A DNA stretch of 64,000 bases from Gaiellaceae bacterium (GCA_046262635.1 JBHEMK010000067.1:8152-72151); one strand, 5' to 3'. Counted from the first letter of the stretch, positions 664-14,499 are shown. Notes: generated by a model from the letters alone, not told the origin. Translations and numbers: made by a program.

Positions 664-776
664 TCGCTCTACATCGTCCGAGCGGTACAGCTCGGCCGGC
701 TTGGCACCTTGCGTGGTACGCAGGTTGCCGAGGCGTCAGCGGGCCGGTTCCCTCAGCCTCTCTTGATGCGGAGCGG
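664..776 (-). promoter_or_regulatory. SAM-I (S-box) riboswitch aptamer in the 5' leader of the ThrC-like gene
   Basis: Minus-strand RNA CAUCAAGAGAGGCUGAGGGAACCGGCCCGCUGACGCCUCGGCAACCUGCGUACCACGCAAGGUGCCAAGCCGGCCGAGCUGUACCGCUCGGACGAUG carries the S-box blocks AUCAAGAG, GAGGGA, GGCCC, UGA, GGCAACC and AAGGUGCCAA. P1 closes as GCUCcGCAUC...GAUGuaGAGC. The aptamer ends about 25 nt before the GGAGG/TTG start. Confidence 0.9.
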
Positions 777-3205: not shown

Positions 3206-4942
3206 GCCGCCGGCGCCTGGGGCGACGCGATCTCCGACCGGCGCGGGTGGGCGGGTGATGGCGCCGTCTGAGGCGGAGGAGACGAGCGCCGCGTACTTGC
3301 CGAGCACGCCCGCGCGATAGCGCGCCGGCGGCGGCCTCCACTCCGCGAGCCGTCGCTCCAGCTCGCCCTCCGGCACCTCGACGCGCAGCTCCCTGCCCTC
3401 GACGTCGATCGCGACGGTGTCGCCTTCCTCGACCGCCGCGAGCGGCCCGCGGCGCGCCGCCTCGGGTGCGATGTGGCCGACCATCAACCCGTGCGTGGCA
3501 CCGGAGAAGCGGCCGTCCGTGACGAGCGCGACCGCATCGCCGAGGCCCGCCCCGACGAGCGCGCCGGTCACGTGGAGCATCTCGCGCATCCCGGGCCCGC
3601 CGGCCGGCCCCTCGTAGCGGATCACGATCACGTCGCCGGGCTCGATCGAGCCCGCGGTGACGGCGGCGAAGCACTCCTCCTCGGAGTCGAAGACCCGCGC
3701 CGGGCCGCGATGGAGGAGCCGCTCGTGGCCGACGAGCTTGACGACGGAGCCCTCCGGCGCGAGGTTGCCGCGGAGGATGGCCAGGCCTCCCGTCGCCTTC
3801 AGCGGCCGTCCGGCCGGCCTGATCACCTCCTGACCGGGCGTCTCCCGTGCCGCGGCGGCGATTCCGCCGAGAGTGCGGCCGTCGACGTTGAGCGTGCCCT
3901 CGTGGACGAGGCCCGCCTCCACGAGCTCCCGTGCGACGAGCGCGAGCCCGCCGGCGCGATGGAGGTCGGTGGCGACGAAGCGGCCGGCCGGCTTGAGGTC
4001 GGCGAGGACCGGCGTCCGCGAGGCGATCTCGTCGAAGTCGTCGAGCTCGAGCGCGATGTCGAGCTCGCGCGCGATCGCGAGCAGGTGCAGGACGCCGTTC
4101 GTCGAGCCGCCGGTCGCGACGATCGCCGTGATCGCATTCTCGATCGCCTCGCGCGTGAGGATCGCGGAGGTGCGGACGTCGTCGCGGACGAGATCGAGCA
4201 CGATCCGGCCCGCCTGCTCGGCCGCGCCCGCCTTCGCCGGGTCGAGCGCCGGCACGTCGTTCAGTCCAGCCGGGCTGACTCCGAGAAACTCGAGCGCGGT
4301 GGACATCGTGTTCGCGGTGAACTGTCCGCCGCAGGCGCCGGCGCCGGGGCAGGCGACCCCCTCCAGCTCGTGCACGTCCTCGGCGCTCATCGTCCCGGCC
4401 GCGTGCGCACCCACCGCCTCGAAGACGTCCTGGATCGTCACGTTGCGGCCGCGGAAGCGGCCGGGGGCGATCGAGCCGCTGTAGAGAACGAGTGCGGGCA
4501 GGTCCAGGCGCGCGAGGGCCATCACGGCGGCGGGAATCGTCTTGTCGCAGCCGACGAGGCAGACGAGCCCGTCGAACAGATGGCCGCGCGCGACGAGCTC
4601 GATCGAGTCTGCGATCACCTCGCGCGAGACGAGCGAGGCGCGCATCCCGTCGCTGCCCATCGAGACGCCGTCCGAGACCGCGATCGTGTTGAACTCCATC
4701 GGCGTGCCCCCGGCAGCGCGGATGCCGCGCTTCACGTCCTGCGCGAGCCTACGCTGGTTCAGGTTGCACGGCATCGTCTCGATCCACGTCGTCGCCACAC
4801 CGACGAGCGGGCGCGCGAGGTCGTCGTCGGAGAAGCCGGTGCCCTTCAGCATCGCCCGGGCCGCGGCGCGCCCGACGCCGTCGGTGAGCGCCGCGCTGAC
4901 GCGCTTGGCGGGATCGGACGGGCGGTCGTACGGGTCGCTCAT
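3191..4942 (-). CDS. ilvD: dihydroxy-acid dehydratase
   Basis: 583 aa with [26 protein letters not shown] and GGPGMREML. It has an ATGA overlap with the thrB stop. Its 3' end overlaps the proB 3' end by 15 nt (convergent). Confidence 0.95.
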
Positions 4943-5754
4943 AGCGGGCCGGCTCCTTTTGACGAGATCGCGAGAGGGCGGACGTTGGCTCCGGGAAAGC
5001 GCTCGGCGAGCTCGGCGGCGCAGGCCTCCGAGGCGCCGGGCCTGGCCCAGACGATCACCGTCGGGCCGGAGCCCGAGAGCGTCGCGGCGACCGCGTCGGC
5101 GGGGAGCGGGTCGCGCACAGCGGTGAGCACCGGCGCGTTCGCCGCGCGGTACGGCTCGTGCAGGCGGTCGTCGGCCGCGGCGGCGAAGAGCTCGGTCGAG
5201 CCGCCCGCGAGGCCGGCGCCGAGCAGCGCGGCGCGAGCGACCGTGTGGGCCGCGTCGGCAAACGGCACCTGCTCCGGCAGCGCCGCGCGCGCGGCCCGCG
5301 TTTCCACCAGCCCGGGCGGGACCACTGCGACCGGCTCCGCCGGGGCGCCGTCGGCGATGCGGGCGATCCGCCCGGCCCAGGTCAGGCAGACGCCGCCGGT
5401 CAGCGCGGCCGCAAGGTTGTCCGGATGCCCTTCGAGGTCGAGCCCGAGCCCGAGCAGCTCCTCCGCGTGGGCGTCGCGGCCGGAGGCAATCGCGCCGGCG
5501 ATGAGACCGAGGGCGATCGTGGCTGCGCTCGAGCCGAGGCCGCGCTGGCGTGGGATCCGGTCGGTGAAGGCGAAGCTTCGGTGACCGACCGCCGCGAGCC
5601 GCGCGAACGCCTGCACGGCGAGGTGATCGGGGTCGGCACCGCCGCCGTCCTCCCGGACCTCGAGCTCGTTCCAGAGGTCGAGCGCCGCCGCCGCGCAGTC
5701 GAAGCCCGGACCGAGGTTCGCAGTCGTCGCCGGCGCGTGCACGCGGATCGTCAC
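4939..5754 (-). CDS. thrB: homoserine kinase
   Basis: GTG 5754 (GTGA overlap with the thrC stop) inside long ORF 4939..6546. Motifs: [15 protein letters not shown] and the GHMP motif [14 protein letters not shown]. Confidence 0.9.
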
Positions 5755-6689
5755 GCCCCCCGCTCCGCCAGCAGGTCGACCGCCGCGGGATCCTTCAGCC
5801 CATGGCCGGTGAGCACGCACACCACACGCTCGCCGAGCGCCGCCGCCCCGCGCGCCAGGCCCGCGATCGGCGCCGCCGAGGCAGGCTCGCAGAAGAGGCC
5901 TTCCTCGCGCGCGAGCGAGCGCCAGGCGGCCGCGATTTCGTCGTCGCTGACCGAGATCACCGAGCCGCCCGAGCGGGCGACCGCCACATCGACCTCGCGT
6001 CGGTGGACGGGAACCGCGATCCGGATCGCCGAGGCGACTGTCTCTGGGCGGGTCTGAGCCTCGACCGGATGCAGGCGCGGAAGCGAGCCGGTCTCGAGAA
6101 AGCCCTTCGCGTAGGCGGCCGTGTTGCCGCCGCCGCCGTAGGGGAGGGCGAGCACGTCCGGCGCCCCGCCGAGTTGCTCGATGATCTCGAACGCAGCCGT
6201 CTTCTGGCCCTCGAGCCGGTTCGGGTTGGTCGAATTGACGAACGTGAAGTGCTCCGCCTCGGCCAGCTCGAGGGCGGCAGAGAACGCGTCCTCGAACGAG
6301 CCACGGATCTCGAGCAGCCGCGCGCCGGCGGCACGCACCTGAACGAGCTTCGAGGCGGCCACGGCGCCGGCCGGGTAGGCGACGATCGCCTCGATGCCGG
6401 CCCGGGCGGCGTAGGCGGCGGCCGACGCCGCGGTGTTGCCGGTCGAGGCGCAGACGACGCCCCGCGCGCCCTCCTCGAGCGCCTTCGCGACCGCGACGGC
6501 CATGCCGCGGTCCTTGAACGAGCCGGTCGGATTCGCGCCCTCCCACTTCAGCCAGATCTCGACGCCGAGCCGAGCCGAGATGCGCCCGGCGCGCACGAGC
6601 GGGGTCGAGCCCTCGCCGAGCGTGACGAGCGGTGTCTTCTGCGAGACCGGCAGCGAGTCGCGGTAGCGCTCGAGCAGGGGGACGTGCAC
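5751..6689 (-). CDS. thrC: threonine synthase (short canonical form)
   Basis: 312 aa with [17 protein letters not shown] (PLP Lys) and [14 protein letters not shown]. It sits in a hom-thrC-thrB arrangement. Confidence 0.9.
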
Positions 6690-6691
6690 CG

Positions 6692-7981
6692 TCAGATCCC
6701 TCGCTCGGCGATCACGCGGAGGGAATCGGGGCGGTGGCGCACCTCGGCCAGCTGCTCGATCGCGTCGAGCGCAGCCTCCATGCGTCCCGCCGGGGCCGCG
6801 TGCGTCACGAGGTCGAGGCCCGCGCTGCCGTCTAGGAGGCTCTGGGTCAGGCTGGCGATCGAGACGCCCTCCTCGGCGAAGCGCTCGGCCACCTGTGCGA
6901 GCACGCCGGGGCGGTCTGCGACCTCGATGTGGATGTAGAACGGCGAGGCGAGCTCGCCCGGCGGCAGCCGGTCGAGTGTGCGCCAGCAGGCGTCGTTCTG
7001 GAGGAAGCCGGTTCCGGTTGTGCCGAGGACGCTGACCATGTCGGCGACGACGGCGGAGGCGGTCTCCGTCCCGCCCGCGCCCGGGCCCTCGAGCGTGATC
7101 TCCCGGATCGCGTCGCCCTGGAGCATCACGGCGTTGAACGGGCCCACGACGGAGGCAAGCGGGTGGTGCCGGTCGACGAGCGCCGGCCCGACGCGGACGT
7201 CGACGGCGCCGTTGACGAGCGTCGCCGCGCCGACGAGGCGCACGACGGCGCCGAGCCCGCGCGCAGCGGCCATGTGCTCGGCCCTGAGACCCTCGATCCC
7301 TTGATAGGTGACATCGTCGAGCTCGGCGCGCGCGCCGAAGGCGACTGTCGCGAGGATCGCCATCTTGGCGGCCGCGTCGGCGCCGGAGACGTCATCGGTC
7401 GGGTCTGCCTCCGCGTAACCGAGCAGCTGCGCCTCCGCGAGTGCGTCCTCGTAGCCTGCGCCGTCCTCCATCCGGGTGAGGATGAAGTTCGTCGTCCCGT
7501 TGACGATCCCGAGCACCCGGTGCACGTTGGTCACGACGAGCGACTCGCGCAGGACCTTGATCACCGGGATCGCCCCGCAGACCGACGCCTCGAAGCGCAG
7601 CTGGACGCCTCCGGCCGACGCCGCCTCGAAGAGATCGGCGCTGCGCCGTGCGAGCAGCTGCTTGTTCGCCGAGACGACCGGCTTCCCCGCGCGCAGCAGG
7701 TCGAGGACGTAGCCGCCCGTCGGGTCGGTGCCGCCCATCACCTCCGCCACGAGCGCGATCGACGGATCCTCGAGGATCGACGCGAAGTCGCTCGTGAGGA
7801 CGCCGTCGGCGGGCTGGAAGGCGCGCTCTTTCGCGAGATCGCGCACGAGCGCCCGCACGACGCGGAGGCGGTGACCGGTGGCGCGCTCGATCTCCTCGGC
7901 GCCGTCGATCAGGAGACGGTTGACGGCCGCGCCGACCGTGCCGTAGCCGAGCAGCGCGACCGGAACGTCAACCGACGCCAT
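6692..7981 (-). CDS. hom: homoserine dehydrogenase
   Basis: ATG 7981 (MASVDVPVALLGYGTVGAAV Rossmann start) inside ORF 6692..8323. It has a C-terminal ACT-like part. Length is 429 aa. Confidence 0.9.
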   Translation of the reverse strand: MASVDVPVALLGYGTVGAAVNRLLIDGAEEIERATGHRLRVVRALVRDLAKERAFQPADGVLTSDFASILEDPSIALVAEVMGGTDPTGGYVLDLLRAGKPVVSANKQLLARRSADLFEAASAGGVQLRFEASVCGAIPVIKVLRESLVVTNVHRVLGIVNGTTNFILTRMEDGAGYEDALAEAQLLGYAEADPTDDVSGADAAAKMAILATVAFGARAELDDVTYQGIEGLRAEHMAAARGLGAVVRLVGAATLVNGAVDVRVGPALVDRHHPLASVVGPFNAVMLQGDAIREITLEGPGAGGTETASAVVADMVSVLGTTGTGFLQNDACWRTLDRLPPGELASPFYIHIEVADRPGVLAQVAERFAEEGVSIASLTQSLLDGSAGLDLVTHAAPAGRMEAALDAIEQLAEVRHRPDSLRVIAERGI

Positions 7982-7983
7982 GC

Positions 7984-8994
7984 TCAGCCGACGCCATGCG
8001 CCTCCGCGCCGAGGAGCCCTTCTTTGCCGGCGAGGGCGCGGAGCTCGACACCGACCTGCTCGAGCTGGCCGCCCGCATTCTGCCGCCGCAGCTCCTCGAA
8101 GCGCGGCCGCCCCGCCTCGTCGTCCTCGAACAGCTCGCGCGCGAACGCGCCGCTGCGGATCTCCTCGAGCAGCTTCGTCATGTTCTCGCGCACATGATCG
8201 TCGACGATGCGAGGCCCGCGCGAGAGGTCCCCGTACTCGGCGACGTCGGAGATCGAGTAGCGCATGTACTCGAAACCGCCCTCGTAGATCAGGTCGACGA
8301 TCAGCTTCAGCTCGTTCAGGCACTCGTAGTAGGCGATCTCGGGCTGGTAGCCGGCCTCGACGAGTGTCTCGAAGCCGGCCTTGATCAGGGCCGTGACACC
8401 GCCGCAGAGGACCGCCTGCTCGCCGAAGAGGTCGCTCTCGGTCTCCTCCGCAAAGGTCGTCTCGAGCATGCCGACGCGGCCGCAGCCGATCCCGGTGCCG
8501 TAGGCGAGCGCGAGCTCGAGCGCGCGCCCGCTCGCATCCTGGTGGACAGCGACGAGCCCGGGCGTGCCGGCACCGCTCTTGAACAGCTCCCGGACGCGGT
8601 GGCCCGGGGCCTTCGGCGCCACCATGACGACGTCGTGCGCGGCGGCCGGCGTGATCCGGCCGAAGTGGATGTTGAGCCCATGGGCAAAGAGCAGTGCTGC
8701 GTCGGGCTCGAGGTTGGGCTCGATCTCCTGCTCGTAGACGCCCTTCTGCAGGTGGTCCGGAACGAGAATCGCCACGACCTGGGCCCCGCGGGTCGCCTCG
8801 GCGACGGTGCGGACCGCGAGGCCCGCGTCGTCGGCCGCCTCGCGGGAGCGACTCTCCGGCCGCAGGCCGACCTCGACCTCGACGCCCGAGTCCCGCAGGT
8901 TGAGTGCGTGCGCGTGGCCCTGGCTGCCGTAGCCGACGACCGCGACCTTTCCTGAGAGCAGGTCGAGATTGCCTTCGCGGTGGATCGTGGCCAT
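7984..8994 (-). CDS. ilvC: ketol-acid reductoisomerase
   Basis: 336 aa with [28 protein letters not shown] lies upstream. Confidence 0.95.
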
Positions 8995-9686: not shown

Positions 9687-11405
9687 TCACGTCGAGACCA
9701 CCTCGCTCTCGCCCGGATACTCGACCAGGTCGAGCGCAGCGGCGCCCGCGGGAATCATCGGGAAGCAGTGCTCATGGGCATCGACGCGGCAGTCGACGAC
9801 GGCGGTCCGGCCGCACCCGATCGCCTCACCGAGCGTCTCCTCGAGGTCGTCCTCCCGGTCGACGACGAAGCCGCGCGCACCGTAGGCCTCGGCGAGGGCG
9901 GCGTAGTCCGGCAGGTGGTGCGTGAGCTCGATCTGGGAAAAGCGCTCCTCGAAGAACATGTCCTGCCACTGACGAACCATACCGAGGTGGCCGTTGTTGA
10001 CGATCACGACGACGATGGGGAGGTGCTCGAGCACCGAGGTCGCGAGCTCCTGCTGGGTCATCTGGAAGCAGCCGTCGCCGTCGACGCAGATCACCGTCGC
10101 GTCGGGGCGGGCAGCCTTGGCGCCGATCGCGGCCGGGAGGCCGTAGCCCATGGTCCCGAGGCCGCCCGAGGTGATGAACGAGCGCGGCCGGTCGCAGAGC
10201 AGGTACTGCATCGCCCACATCTGGTGCTGGCCGACCCCGGTCGTCCAGATCACGTCGTCTCGGCCGGCGGTCAGCGCCTGCAGCGTCTCCAGCACCGGCT
10301 GCGGCTTCATCGGGCCGCCGCCACCGCCGTAGCGCAGCGGGAACTCCTCGCGCCACCGGCGGATCTGGGCGAGCCATGGCTCGGTGGCGTCCGGCCGGTG
10401 CACCTCGCGGAGCTCGCGGGCGAGGTCGGCCAGCACGGGCTTCAGCGGCCCGACGACGGGAACGTCCGCGTGGCGGAGTTTGTCGATCTCGGCGGAGTCG
10501 ACATCGAGGTGGATCACCGTCGCGCCAGCCGCGAAGGACGCGAGCTTACCCGTGACCCGGTCGTCGAAGCGTGCGCCGACGGCCACGAGCACGTCACACT
10601 TGTTGATCGCGTAGTTCGACCACTTCGGGCCGTGCATCCCCGGCCAGCCGAAGTGCAGCTCGTGCGTCTCGGGGAAGCCGCTCTTGGCCATCAGGGTCGT
10701 CACCACGGGCAGGCGCCCGCTCTCGGCGAGCTCGAGTAGCTCGGGACACGCATCGGCGTTCAGCACACCGCCGCCGACGTAGAGAACCGGGCGCTCGGCC
10801 GAGGCGATCCGCTTCGCCGCCTCGCGGATCTGGCGGGGGTGCCCTCGCCGCGGCGGTCGCCAGCCGGGCAGGTCGACGGTGTCCGGATACCCGAAATCGA
10901 GCTCGGCCTCCTGCACGTCGCGCGGGATGTCGACGAGGACCGGTCCGCAACGGCCGGTGCTCGCAACGTGGAAGGCGGCCTTCATGATGTGGGGCAGGTC
11001 GGCGACGTCCTTCACGAGCCACGAGTGCTTGACGACCGGGATGGTGATCCCGGTGATGTCGCACTCCTGGAACGCATCCGTGCCGATCAGGTGCGAGCGA
11101 ACCTGGCCGGTGATGCAGACGAGCGGCGTCGAATCCATCCACGCGTCGGCGATCGGGGTGACGAGGTTCGTCGCTCCGGGGCCGGAGGTGGCGAGCGCGA
11201 CCCCGATGTTGCCGGAGGCGCGCGCGTAGCCCTCGGCCATGTGGCCGGCTCCCTGCTCGTGGCGGGCGAGCACGTGCCGGACGGTCGTGCCGCGGGCGAA
11301 GGCGTCGTAGGTCGGCAGGATCGCCCCGCCCGGAAGACCGAAGACGACGTCGACGTCCTCCGCCTCGAGCGAGCGAAGGACGGCGTCGGCCCCGTTCATC
11401 CTCAT
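9687..11405 (-). CDS. ilvB: acetolactate synthase large subunit (TPP enzyme)
   Basis: ATG 11405 (GGGAGG upstream, ATGA overlap with the upstream gene) inside ORF 9687..11690. Motifs: MRMNGADAVLRSLEAEDVDVVFGLPGG, GGLGTMGYGLPAAIGAK, VDGDGCFQM. Confidence 0.95.
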   Translation of the reverse strand: MRMNGADAVLRSLEAEDVDVVFGLPGGAILPTYDAFARGTTVRHVLARHEQGAGHMAEGYARASGNIGVALATSGPGATNLVTPIADAWMDSTPLVCITGQVRSHLIGTDAFQECDITGITIPVVKHSWLVKDVADLPHIMKAAFHVASTGRCGPVLVDIPRDVQEAELDFGYPDTVDLPGWRPPRRGHPRQIREAAKRIASAERPVLYVGGGVLNADACPELLELAESGRLPVVTTLMAKSGFPETHELHFGWPGMHGPKWSNYAINKCDVLVAVGARFDDRVTGKLASFAAGATVIHLDVDSAEIDKLRHADVPVVGPLKPVLADLARELREVHRPDATEPWLAQIRRWREEFPLRYGGGGGPMKPQPVLETLQALTAGRDDVIWTTGVGQHQMWAMQYLLCDRPRSFITSGGLGTMGYGLPAAIGAKAARPDATVICVDGDGCFQMTQQELATSVLEHLPIVVVIVNNGHLGMVRQWQDMFFEERFSQIELTHHLPDYAALAEAYGARGFVVDREDDLEETLGEAIGCGRTAVVDCRVDAHEHCFPMIPAGAAALDLVEYPGESEVVST

Positions 11406-12298
11406 ACGGCCTCCCGGTGGAACTCGGCGTTCGACCAGGCGAGCGGAAGCTGCGCCAGCACCGTGTCGGCGTGACCTCGGGTCGACGGCGGTTTCGCGCG
11501 CGCGTGCACTTGGCCGACCGCCGAGGAGAGCGTCGCGGCGGCGCGGCGCTCGCCGAGCCCCTCGCCGACCATCAGCGCGGCCGCAAGCAGCATCGAGCTC
11601 GGGTCGGCGACGCCCTGGCCGGCGATGTCGTCGGCGGCTCCGTGCGTTGCGCCGAAGACGCTCGGGCCGCCCGGGGCCAGGCGGCCCCACGCGGCGGTCC
11701 GGTTCTGCGCGAGGCAGGCGGCCAGGTCGCCCGCGGTCGTCGCCAGCTCGGGCGAAACGACGAGGACGTCGAATCGATGCGGCGCGAAGACGAGCGCACG
11801 CACCGCCTCGGCGGTTCGGAGCCGCTCCACGTCGAGCCCGTCGTGACGCGCCTCGAGCGCCGCCGCGCGGCCGTTGTCGACGTCCACGAGCGAGATCCGC
11901 GCGCGGCTCTCCCGCGCGAGGTCGAAGCTCCGCTCCAGCGTCCAGTCCCAGGCGTCGGCCCTGAGCGGTGCTACCACCGAGAGCTCCGCGGACCGGTCGA
12001 AGCGAACGCGGACGATGGAGGCGCGAAGGTCGAGCTCCTCCTCGAGCGTCTCGAGCTGGGCGCCGTCCTCCGAGGCGACGAGCACTGCGTCGGCGCCGAG
12101 GACCGCTCGCCGGGACGAGCTGGGGAACGGGTGGCCGAACCGCATGATTGCGTCGGCACCGAACGGTACGTGCAGCTCGTCGACGGCGAAGCCGTGCAGC
12201 CGCGAGGCGGCGCCGACTGCCCGGCTCGCCTGAGCCATCACCTCCGGGCCGATGCCGTGCCGGGAGAGGCAGGCGACGGTGTAAACGGTGCGTCTCAC
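11402..12298 (-). CDS. isopropylmalate/isocitrate dehydrogenase-fold protein, short (298 aa) and apparently lacking the catalytic residues
   Basis: GTG 12298 (GTGA overlap with the leuA stop) inside ORF 11402..13021. It retains RHGIGPEV and GATHGAADDIAGQGVADPSSMLLAAALM. DKANV is replaced by DVDNG and GDILSD by GDLAAC. No VRExTEGxY block is visible. Confidence 0.75.
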   Translation of the reverse strand: MRRTVYTVACLSRHGIGPEVMAQASRAVGAASRLHGFAVDELHVPFGADAIMRFGHPFPSSSRRAVLGADAVLVASEDGAQLETLEEELDLRASIVRVRFDRSAELSVVAPLRADAWDWTLERSFDLARESRARISLVDVDNGRAAALEARHDGLDVERLRTAEAVRALVFAPHRFDVLVVSPELATTAGDLAACLAQNRTAAWGRLAPGGPSVFGATHGAADDIAGQGVADPSSMLLAAALMVGEGLGERRAAATLSSAVGQVHARAKPPSTRGHADTVLAQLPLAWSNAEFHREAV

Positions 12299-13440
12299 GC
12301 GGTCACCTCGGCGAAGAGCTCGTGCAGGCCAATGGGGCGACCCGTGTCGGCCAGCGCCTTGAACCGGCGAAACGCCGCCGTCAGCTCCTCGTGGCTGAGC
12401 TCGATTCCGGCCTCGTTGCAGGCGCGGGCGAACGCGTGCCGGCCAGAGTGCTTGCCGAGCGGCAGCGTCATCGTGACACCGAGCTCCCCGGGATCCATGA
12501 TCTGGTACGTCGAGAGATCCTTGAGCAGCCCGTCCTGGTGGATGCCGGCCTCGTGCGCGAAGGCGTTGGCGCCGACGATCGCTTTGTTGCGCGGCACGGC
12601 GTAGCCGCTCAGCCGCTCGACGATCCGCGAGGCTGCGCCGATCTGCGACGCGTCGATCCCCGTCTCGGCGCGCAGGGCCGTGCGCCGCACCCGAAGCGCC
12701 ATCACGATCTCCTCGAGCGCGGCGTTGCCCGCCCGCTCGCCGATGCCGTTGATCGTGCACTCGATCTGACCGACGCCCGCCTCGATCGCCGCGAGCGAGT
12801 TCGCAACCGCGAGACCGAGGTCGTCGTGGCAGTGCGCCGAGAGCGTCACACCGGCGAGCTCGGGGCAGAGCCGGCGGACCTCGTTGAGGAAGCCGACGTA
12901 CTCCACCGGCAGCGCGTAGCCGACCGTGTCGGGCAGATTGACCACCGTTGCGCCCGCCCGGACGGCTGCACGGCAAACCCTCGCGACGAAGGCCGGATCG
13001 GAGCGGGTGGCGTCCTCGCACGAGAACTCGACTTCAGCCACGCGCGCCACCGCGGCGGCGACCGAGCGGGAGGCTTGCTCCACCACCTCGTCGGGCTCGA
13101 GCTGCAGCTTCTTCTCCATGTGCACCGGGCTCGTTGCGATGAAGAGGTGGATCCGCGACCGGTGGGCGTCGGCCAGCGCCTCGGCTCCGGCGGCGATGTC
13201 TTCCGGCCGCGTTCGGCAGAGGCTGGCGACGGTCGCGCGCCCGGCGGTGCGTGCGACGGCTCGCACGCCCTCGAAGTCGCCGGGCGAGGACACGGCGAAT
13301 CCGGCCTCGATCACGTCGACTCCGAGACGCTCGAGCTGCTCCGCGATCTCGGCCTTCTCGTGCGGGAGCAGCGCGATTCCCGGCGATTGCTCGCCGTCGC
13401 GAAGCGTCGTATCGAAGATGGCGATCCTGCGCGAACTCAC
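12295..13440 (-). CDS. leuA: 2-isopropylmalate synthase family enzyme, short form without the C-terminal LeuA-dimer/regulatory domain
   Basis: 381 aa with IFDTTLRDGEQSPG, HCHDDLGLAVANSLAA and GIGERAGNAALEE. AAGGAGG lies 5 nt before GTG 13440. Confidence 0.9.
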   Translation of the reverse strand: MSSRRIAIFDTTLRDGEQSPGIALLPHEKAEIAEQLERLGVDVIEAGFAVSSPGDFEGVRAVARTAGRATVASLCRTRPEDIAAGAEALADAHRSRIHLFIATSPVHMEKKLQLEPDEVVEQASRSVAAAVARVAEVEFSCEDATRSDPAFVARVCRAAVRAGATVVNLPDTVGYALPVEYVGFLNEVRRLCPELAGVTLSAHCHDDLGLAVANSLAAIEAGVGQIECTINGIGERAGNAALEEIVMALRVRRTALRAETGIDASQIGAASRIVERLSGYAVPRNKAIVGANAFAHEAGIHQDGLLKDLSTYQIMDPGELGVTMTLPLGKHSGRHAFARACNEAGIELSHEELTAAFRRFKALADTGRPIGLHELFAEVTA

Positions 13441-13526
13441 TGAATCCTCCTTGCGTCCCGAGTGCGGGCGGACGGGTGGCGGCGACGGTGGGGTGTGCGC
13501 CTTTCAGCGCGTGTTCGCGTCTCCCC

Positions 13527-13616
13527 CTAGCGGGGGAGAATCGAGAGGATAAGCGCGATCGACCCGGACACGGAGGTCCGGGCGGAGAGCGAGCCGCGGT
13601 TCGAGCCTGTCCTCAT
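13527..13616 (-). CDS. candidate 29-codon Ile/Leu-rich leader peptide of the leu-ilv-thr operon
   Basis: Own translation: ATG 13616 .. TAG 13527 gives MRTGSNRGSLSARTSVSGSIALILSILPR. There are 3 Ile and 3 Leu codons in the last 10, including the rare AT-ending ATT and CTT. The stop sits in the loop of hairpin TCTCCCCC-GCTA-GGGGGAGA. Confidence 0.45.
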   Translation of the reverse strand: MRTGSNRGSLSARTSVSGSIALILSILPR

Positions 13617-13625
13617 CGTGCCGCC

Positions 13626-13654
13626 AGTGTGGCTGAGGGCTTGCACCTTGTCAA
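13626..13654 (-). promoter_or_regulatory. candidate promoter of the leu-ilv-thr operon (TTGACA - 17 nt - CACACT)
   Basis: Minus strand cTTGACAaggtgcaagccctcagcCACACTggcggcacgATG. The -10 ends 9 nt before the leader-peptide ATG, which implies a leaderless or near-leaderless small ORF. Confidence 0.35.
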
Positions 13655-13707
13655 GTCGCTGCCAACGCGACAGATGCCCGACGCCACCCGGGATCGGCCG
13701 GCCTCGT

Positions 13708-13737
13708 TTGACAGCGGCGGTCGTGGGGCGCGATAGT
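13708..13737 (+). promoter_or_regulatory. candidate promoter of the sugar ABC cluster (TTGACA - 18 nt - GATAGT)
   Basis: cgtTTGACAgcggcggtcgtggggcgcGATAGTccctgcgGTG. The -10 ends 7 nt before GTG 13745, so the mRNA is probably leaderless. Confidence 0.35.
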
Positions 13738-13744
13738 CCCTGCG

Positions 13745-14499
<755 letters not shown>

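Follow-up and report, generated by a model that had tools for sequence, protein, structure and literature searches.

Upstream of leuA in the DNA analysed here, a window of 64,000 nucleotides from a Gaiellaceae bacterium, lies a small ORF that comparison with related loci identifies as a genuine, conserved leader peptide. It is very likely that this leader is a real sensor of isoleucine, leucine and valine. On balance, we favour the view that it is a branched-chain-amino-acid-sensing leader that controls the initiation of leuA translation and not the termination of transcription. Its output route is probably the sequestration of the leuA start by S, an RNA segment that follows the stop codon of the small ORF (Table 1). 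The leader is assigned to a family, named here the Thermoleophilia ILV leaders, which has two architectures and a predicted 5'-end lock and is absent from Rfam.

Table 1. Positions of the leader elements and of the first two genes, numbered from the first letter of the window
Feature	Position	Strand	Basis or remark
-35 hexamer TTGACA	13649..13654	-	sequence; TTGAC(A) equally spaced in 13 Gaiellaceae loci
-10-like hexamer CACACT	13626..13631	-	9 nt 5' of the uORF ATG (13616); conservation-based
Leader ORF (uORF), 29 codons + TAG, MRTGSNRGSLSARTSVSGSIALILSILPR	13527..13616	-	sequence and conservation; TAG = 13529-13527
Lock helix, 5' strand, G of ATG + AGGACAGGCTCGA	13601..13614	-	predicted, RNAalifold
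Lock helix, 3' strand, within the Ile/Leu codons, includes TCCTC of ATCCTC	13545..13558	-	predicted
In-ORF hairpin CCCGGAC-ctccgt-GTCCGGG	13562..13583	-	arms 13582-13576 / 13569-13563
Regulatory codon run I-A-L-I-L-S-I-L	13536..13559	-	contains rare CTT and ATT codons
P0, 5' strand GATTC, with rare Ile codon ATT	13538..13542	-	RNAalifold
P0, 3' strand GGATC	13423..13427	-	rare AGG Arg codon + ATC, leuA codons 5-6
P1, stop-codon hairpin TCTCCCCC-GCTA-GGGGGAGA	13520..13539	-	arms 13539-13532 / 13527-13520
S, anti-start strand CGCGAAC-A-CGC	13508..13519	-	flush with P1; MFE and RNAalifold consensus
P2 hairpin GCGCT-GAAA-GGCGC	13497..13510	-	covariation
C-rich linker with small P3 hairpin (13470-13454)	13454..13496	-	P3 just 5' of the SD
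leuA Shine-Dalgarno GGAGG	13446..13450	-	sequence
S', leuA GTG + codons 2-4 (GTGAGTTCGCG)	13430..13440	-	pairs with S
leuA, 381 aa, catalytic part only	12295..13440	-	GTG start 13440; NF002086, 542 bits
leuB-like gene, 294 aa, after leuA	~11402-12286	-	Pfam Iso_dh, 64 bits

The leader ORF and its family

The first-pass annotation of this DNA had described a TTGACA-17-CACACT promoter with an ATG 9 nt past the -10 and, between this promoter and leuA, an effectively leaderless small ORF with six Ile or Leu codons among its last ten. The promoter, with its 17 nt spacer on the minus strand, and the ORF are both present, and Ile or Leu does occupy six of the ten final codons. The -10 element of the window is weak: CACACT did not pass a generic sigma-70 scan and is recognised by its conservation. 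In all relatives the uORF starts 8-10 nt from the -10 and an SD is absent, a spacing which agrees with the leaderless character claimed earlier and is consistent with a near-leaderless uORF start. The uORF frame of the window is open from the TAG as far as a TGA that overlaps the leuA GTG; read-through coupling from the uORF to leuA was considered and dropped, as the stop-to-start distance has no conserved phase among relatives. On the opposite strand, a divergent promoter (TTGACA-18-GATAGT, 13708-13745) is separated by 7 nt from the GTG of a gene for a sugar-type ABC ATPase, which is followed by a gene for a LacI-family regulator; the divergent transcript is probably another leaderless one.

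A genome scan with LeuA recovered Gaiellaceae MAGs at 65-73% identity and other Gaiellales and Solirubrobacterales at approximately 55%. A uORF with an I/L/V run, the stop-codon hairpin P1 and the promoter spacing were found together upstream of leuA in 30 of 31 Thermoleophilia loci, the single exception being a homopolymer frameshift in one MAG. Scanning of metagenomes with a pattern made of the stop-codon hairpin and the conserved CACGCG motif then enlarged the family to approximately 90 distinct leaders from related soil actinobacterial sequences. Conservation of an Ile/Leu-rich uORF in orthologous leaders, which had been proposed as a check on the original idea, is thus borne out in both sets. 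The Gaiellaceae uORFs end in ...ILP[LRH]*, with the stop within a CUCCCCC/GGGGGAG hairpin; upstream of them come TTGACA, a -10-like hexamer and a gap of 8-10 nt that lacks an SD. Searches of Rfam 15 gave no match at gathering score for the whole window, and for 13300-13800 at E-values up to 10 they returned noise only (E-values of at least 0.9).

A hydrophobic C-terminus could also belong to a chance ORF, such ORFs being frequent in 71% GC DNA, or to a hydrophobic micro-protein that has nothing to do with regulation. However, frame, stop position and ILV run are all retained and every C-terminal run is hydrophobic, in contrast to a freely varying N-terminal part; moreover, the content of the peptide (Leu-only or ILV) follows the operon and rare codons are enriched. 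We therefore regard an ORF unrelated to regulation as very improbable.

ATT and CTT, which the first-pass annotation had called rare in this GC-rich DNA, are indeed rare, at 2.7% of Ile codons and 2.2% of Leu codons, respectively, in eight genes of the window (71% GC). In the family leaders they make up 32% of Ile codons and 18% of Leu codons, which is an 8- to 12-fold enrichment over the window genes, and the ATT codon of the regulatory run is retained in 87 of 90 leaders. Codons -16 to -5 across the family are 53% Ile, Leu or Val, and codons ending in G are depleted among them, a pattern typical of a codon-sensing leader peptide. The peptide also tracks the operon behind it, Leu-only peptides going with leuA alone and Ile/Leu/Val peptides with leuA-leuB-ilvB. 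The Solirubrobacterales have a full-length leuA standing alone and a leader peptide (MSFRNSLLSLLLLPPRGE) with Leu only; two loci with full-length leuA-leuB-ilvB (L014 and L018) have the leader peptide ...LLLLVGLLPR; and the clade of the window, with a short leuA, a leuB-like gene and ilvB, has mixed Ile/Leu/Val runs. Because the composition of the peptide follows the operon and rare codons are enriched, we argue that the codons are the sensor.

RNA structure of the leader and probable closure of the leuA start

Two hairpins reported in the first-pass annotation, one with a GCTA loop holding the uORF stop codon and one within the ORF, were both found. The first is P1, in which the stop codon extends across the loop onto the first nucleotide, a G, of the 3' arm; it recurs in every Thermoleophilia ortholog and is present in every family member (the hairpin belonged to the metagenome search pattern). 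The stem of the in-ORF hairpin (13582-13563) is kept in the closest relatives (L139, L188, L192 and L194) despite differing loop and peptide, and it may be a pause or timing hairpin. At P2, five pair types occur at the first variable pair, which is canonical in every one of the 90 leaders, compared with a shuffled-partner mean of 44, and this covariation marks P2 as a genuine hairpin. One flank of P2, CACGCG, occurs in 78 of 90 leaders, its ACGCG core being fixed by the search pattern, and the other flank, CGCAnAC, is itself part of that pattern. A conserved linker, ACGCCGACC, and GUGCG come after the P2 region. Mutual information between anchored columns brought out P2 alone; pairing of the P2 3' arm with GUGCG was rejected on account of an inconsistent register and covariation that, judged by hand, was only partial. 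The P0 pairs are invariant in the seven aligned sequences and so carry no covariation evidence; the AGG at leuA codon 5 accounts for 3.3% of Arg codons in the genes of the window. GAUUC:GGAUC (P0) could form a three-way junction with P1 and the helix between S and the leuA start (S:start). One otherwise typical leader (L193) has three tandem CCGGAGCGCTCAAGCGCTTCGGAG copies between P3 and the SD.

To what the leuA start is paired was assessed in 61 leuA-linked leaders, in which S, the segment between P1 and CACGCG, and U, the codon run, were each tested for pairing with the start region (-22 to +16), dinucleotide shuffles of that region serving as the control. S pairs with the start region at z < -2 in 34 of the 61 leaders (S-type) and U pairs with it significantly in 16 (U-type), and the two groups hardly overlap. 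The pairing of S in the window with GTG-A-GTTCGCG reaches -12.4 kcal/mol (z = -2.6). This helix, flush against P1, is part of the MFE fold of the window and also of an independent RNAalifold consensus. It covaries, with unrelated sequence solutions in different leaders (CACGAACAC/GUGUUCGUG, GCGCACUC/GAGUGCGC, AUUUCGCUC/GAGCGAAAU and UCGCGUACC/GGUACGCGA), and within the subfamily of the window the GCGAAC-CAC and GCGA-CUCAC variants of S both pair with GUGAGUUCGCG. Where S' lies relative to the SD and the start codon differs among leaders. The first base of the uORF stop codon lies 10-12 nt 5' of the beginning of the S helix.

An anti-SD role had earlier been proposed for the codons ATC-CTC, on the ground of their complementarity to GAGGAT in the leuA SD region. 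The complementarity is there, as ATCCTC (13550-13545) literally matches GAGGAT (13449-13444), but as an anti-SD arrangement it does not rise above chance and is not kept in the six closest relatives of the window. Pairing of U with the SD/start region in the window has z = +0.4 against shuffles and z = +0.9 against codon permutations, and its pairing with the SD is equalled or exceeded by 82% of codon permutations of the peptide region; for codon-to-SD pairing in the S-type group as a whole, the mean z is +0.4. Pyrimidine-rich Ile/Leu codons complement any purine-rich SD through composition alone. For S-type leaders, a comparison of the codon region with any downstream RNA gave no significant partner.

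It is nonetheless conceivable that the ATCCTC codons pair with the leuA SD, that a stalled ribosome frees the SD directly, and that this pairing coexists with S:start as a pseudoknot. Such a pseudoknot would lie beyond the reach of nested folding, 6-7 bp of complementarity do exist in the window, and this is the design both of the 16 U-type relatives, in which stalling markedly lowers the modelled cost of opening the start (see below), and of the Solirubrobacterales. For the window, direct release of the SD is unlikely: besides the chance-level pairing and its loss in the closest relatives, the 5' end of the uORF already supplies the Ile/Leu codons with a covarying partner. The codon-to-SD idea thus appears, from these comparisons, to be right for the U-type relatives and not for the window. 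In the U-type relatives codon-SD pairing is real and extensive, and in Solirubrobacterales the pairing with the leuA SD and AUG extends over the entire uORF, its own AUG included. In L015-L058 (Solirubrobacterales), the uORF 5' end AUGUCGUUC is a perfect complement of GAACGACAU-G in the start region of leuA, so the two start codons would sequester each other. An ermC-like anti-sequestrator, in which the freed G-rich P1 3' arm and S pair with a downstream CUCC-containing element, was also tried and was significant only in the GCGCACUCAC subfamily.

The partner of the codon run at the uORF 5' end came from an RNAalifold analysis of seven sequences from the subfamily of the window. In the consensus fold, the ATC-CTC codons are paired to the 5' end AUGAGGA of the uORF with compensatory changes, and 11 of the 13 pairs of this lock helix are formed in the window. 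Of 55 leaders compared with shuffles, 22 have lock pairing at z < -2, and across the family cognate codon runs are favoured over non-cognate ones (p = 1.4e-6). Five distinct solutions were seen: AUGACGAC/GUCGUCAU, AUGACCGU/ACGGUCAU, AGGAUGAG/CUCAUCCU, UCGAUGCC/GGCAUCGA and UUGACGAGGA/UCCUCGUC. Taken alone, the lock of the window is not distinctive, as 41% of non-cognate codon runs pair equally well, and we infer its presence there at the level of the family, from the relatives.

Probable translational output and a candidate trigger

Between 13300 and 13800 no terminator-like site was found, and no T-run follows P1, P2 or P3. Antiterminator pairing of the freed P1 3' arm and S with downstream RNA was not a general feature (mean z = -0.29; window z = +0.79). 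A leader that lacks a terminator does not act by classical transcription attenuation, and with an intrinsic terminator absent the output is most likely translational. The original identification of a leader peptide upstream of leuA stands, the peptide being rich in Ile, Leu and Val and conserved. Further indications of a translational output come from several metagenome loci (L101, L121, L129, L173, L089, L119 and L146) in which the leader precedes leuB-like or ilvB-like genes. In these loci a short relay ORF of 7-36 codons begins at the leader-proximal start site, and its stop overlaps the ATG of the next gene (ATGA). Such ATGA-coupled relay ORFs suggest that the step under control is initiation at this start site. 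Some relay ORFs are remnants of the 5' end of leuA.

Transcription could still be the regulated process if P1 were a terminator or pause site without a U-tract that is blocked by a ribosome on its 5' arm, or if Rho acted on the untranslated C-rich leader. P1 is a strong 8-bp GC hairpin with its 5' arm inside the ORF, the 46 nt between 13455 and 13500 contain 26 C and 11 G and are rut-like, and Rho polarity is expected wherever leuA is untranslated. We give transcriptional control only a small chance for four reasons. First, a U-tract is absent after every hairpin. Second, in simple rut-masking a ribosome on the codon run would leave the C-rich stretch uncovered, which gives the wrong sign of regulation. 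Third, the covarying helix targets the start codon rather than a terminator, and the relay ORFs described above indicate initiation. Fourth, the closest tested analogue, the mycobacterial polyCys system, is translational.

To model the effect of translation, a ribosome was represented as an unpaired stretch and the cost of opening -14 to +10 of leuA was computed by equilibrium nested folding, which is blind to pseudoknots and to folding kinetics. For U-type leaders the cost was 15.1 kcal/mol in free RNA, 8.8 kcal/mol with a ribosome on the ILV codons (p = 3e-7) and 12.8 kcal/mol with a ribosome on the stop codon. The corresponding values for S-type leaders were 14.4, 15.0 (not significant) and 12.5 kcal/mol, the last falling to 11.8 kcal/mol with a longer footprint (p about 1e-6 for the effect at the stop codon); in this group only a stop-codon ribosome lowers the modelled cost. 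For the window itself the values were 14.2, 12.9 and 12.1 kcal/mol. The gain in start-site accessibility is almost nil with a ribosome on the Ile/Leu codons and approximately 2 kcal/mol with one at the stop codon. When accessibility of the SD only was considered, the ribosome masks gave mixed results, which were flat for the window. In these models direct masking would leave induction in the subtype of the window unexplained. Since a ribosome on the Ile/Leu codons gains almost nothing, we infer the link from stalling to opening rather than derive it from the folding.

The failure of modelled stalling alone to open the start site would be accommodated if a protein or small ligand bound the core and stabilised S:start, much like a riboswitch or along the lines suggested for the LEU element, with the uORF as an auxiliary. 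A suitable core can be drawn, as S:start closes a three-way junction with P2, P3 and conserved unpaired nucleotides. The motifs flanking P2 (partly or wholly fixed by the collecting pattern), the linker and GUGCG are conserved, and Seliverstov et al. argued in favour of a protein acting on LEU elements (PMC1262725). Against such a factor, the peptide content tracks the operon, rare codons are strongly enriched and a match to an Rfam family is absent, and we consider it quite unlikely to be the controlling agent. A more radical alternative is that the P2/P3 junction is a ligand or protein aptamer for branched-chain metabolism that acts together with the uORF.

Two conserved features have the right sign, namely the 5'-end lock and the placement of S at 10-12 nt past the first base of the stop. 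As these alone give the right sign, we propose, tentatively, a lock-and-relay trigger. In ribosome-free RNA, the leuA start and codons 2-4 pair with S, in a helix flush on P1, and pairing of the codon run with the uORF 5' end would shut the uORF when its codons are free of ribosomes. With charged Ile, Leu and Val tRNAs plentiful, the first ribosome would pass through and depart, after which the 5' end would lock on the codon run, P1 and S:start would form and leuA would stay closed. With these tRNAs scarce, ribosomes would linger on the codon run, so that the uORF 5' end would remain open and loading would continue. Each ribosome reaching the TAG would then open P0 and P1 and press against the neighbouring S:start helix, and 30S subunits would gain access to the leuA start through the disturbed helix. 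Where leuA went untranslated, the ilv genes behind it would additionally be subject to polarity.

This trigger would require leaderless initiation to be slower than transit of the uORF. More speculative still is its strict form, in which the codons lock the start of their own leaderless uORF and never touch the leuA start, slow decoding produces a train of ribosomes and termination does the relaying. Other candidates for the trigger are a weak, pseudoknotted U:SD pairing, lost stacking on P1, Rho polarity and a factor acting on the P2/P3 core. Hungry-codon frameshifting on the C-run was considered too and set aside, as nothing spoke in its favour. The lock-and-relay model does not account for the strict sequence conservation of P1 or for the conserved unpaired flanks of P2.

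Related systems and the leuA operon

Among tested systems the mycobacterial polyCys leaderless sORF comes closest, and among predictions the LEU element. The polyCys sORFs are translational attenuators in which the downstream ribosome-binding site is sequestered (Canestrari et al., bioRxiv 10.1101/834739). Like them, the leader described here is a small actinobacterial ORF, in its case putatively leaderless, that carries end-product codons in a run at its 3' end, with a predicted translational output through a sequestered ribosome-binding site (in the window by S:start, modelled at approximately 14 kcal/mol) and without a terminator. On paper, the U-type relatives would follow the polyCys mechanism exactly. 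The Thermoleophilia leader differs in that it would sense Ile, Leu and Val and not Cys. In the window, moreover, the codon run is not paired with the downstream SD and appears instead to be paired to the 5' end of its own uORF, the anti-start strand lies past the stop codon, and there are a conserved stop-codon hairpin and a P2 core.

The LEU element was described upstream of the long-type leuA of other actinobacterial classes, with a base stem between Leu codons and the SD, by authors who doubted a leader-peptide mechanism for it (Seliverstov et al. 2005, PMC1262725). A conserved internal pseudoknot or an alternative two-helix fold belongs to its description, and Rfam has no model for it. [quoted passage not shown] The base stem in the window, in contrast, is formed by the post-stop segment and the start codon, the two elements being compared here by description only.

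Two further groups of known systems offer partial parallels. In the classical transcription attenuators of trp, leu and ilvGMEDA in enterobacteria and of ilvB in Corynebacterium, control is exerted through a leader peptide. As in these, the short ORF of the window is rich in regulatory codons, rare ones included, its stop codon is flanked by the two arms of the first hairpin and alternative pairings would depend on the position of the ribosome; unlike these, it has no terminator hairpin with U-tract, its regulated structure covers a start codon and its own start is putatively leaderless. Coupling of translation through the unfolding of a long-range helix is known from rpmI-rplT and from MS2 coat-replicase. 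There, as envisaged for the window, a start closed by a distant complementary segment is opened by a ribosome that translates up to that segment, but in the window the place of the upstream ORF is taken by a sensor of 29 codons, and the coupling is a predicted one.

In the window, leuA heads a same-strand run that comprises leuA, a leuB-like gene, ilvB, ilvN, ilvC, hom, a thrB-like gene and ilvD. The LeuA of the window, which matches the 2-isopropylmalate synthase model NF002086, does not carry LeuA_dimer, the allosteric domain for Leu feedback, and neither do those of the 13 closest Gaiellaceae loci (L001-L012 and L046); together these proteins are 379-386 aa in length. The more distant Thermoleophilia LeuA proteins keep LeuA_dimer and are 514-540 aa in length. 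As LeuA in the clade of the window has no allosteric domain, the leader may be the main or sole feedback on leucine synthesis. The 294-aa leuB-like protein is a strongly degenerate member of the isocitrate/isopropylmalate dehydrogenase family, far below the leuB cut-off, and has only 36-62% identity among relatives. The homoserine dehydrogenase and thrB-like genes lie between ilvC and ilvD (4939-8323, minus strand); their ORFs exceed the matched domains in length, so that the true starts probably lie inside them. The same strand carries, at its far end, a SAM riboswitch (RF00162, 74.7 bits, 668-772, minus strand), and the gene that it controls runs off or near the start of the window.

The Gaiellales and Solirubrobacterales are abundant soil actinobacteria that are nearly unstudied, and to our knowledge no regulatory RNA has been described in them. 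The leader reported here would control most of the branched-chain pathway. Its family amounts to a natural experiment, in which either the codon run or the post-stop segment is predicted to hide the same start behind the same peptide among close relatives. The two architectures bear on how the position of a ribosome may be turned into translational control without terminators, a question that has stood for actinobacterial leuA since the LEU element was proposed in 2005.
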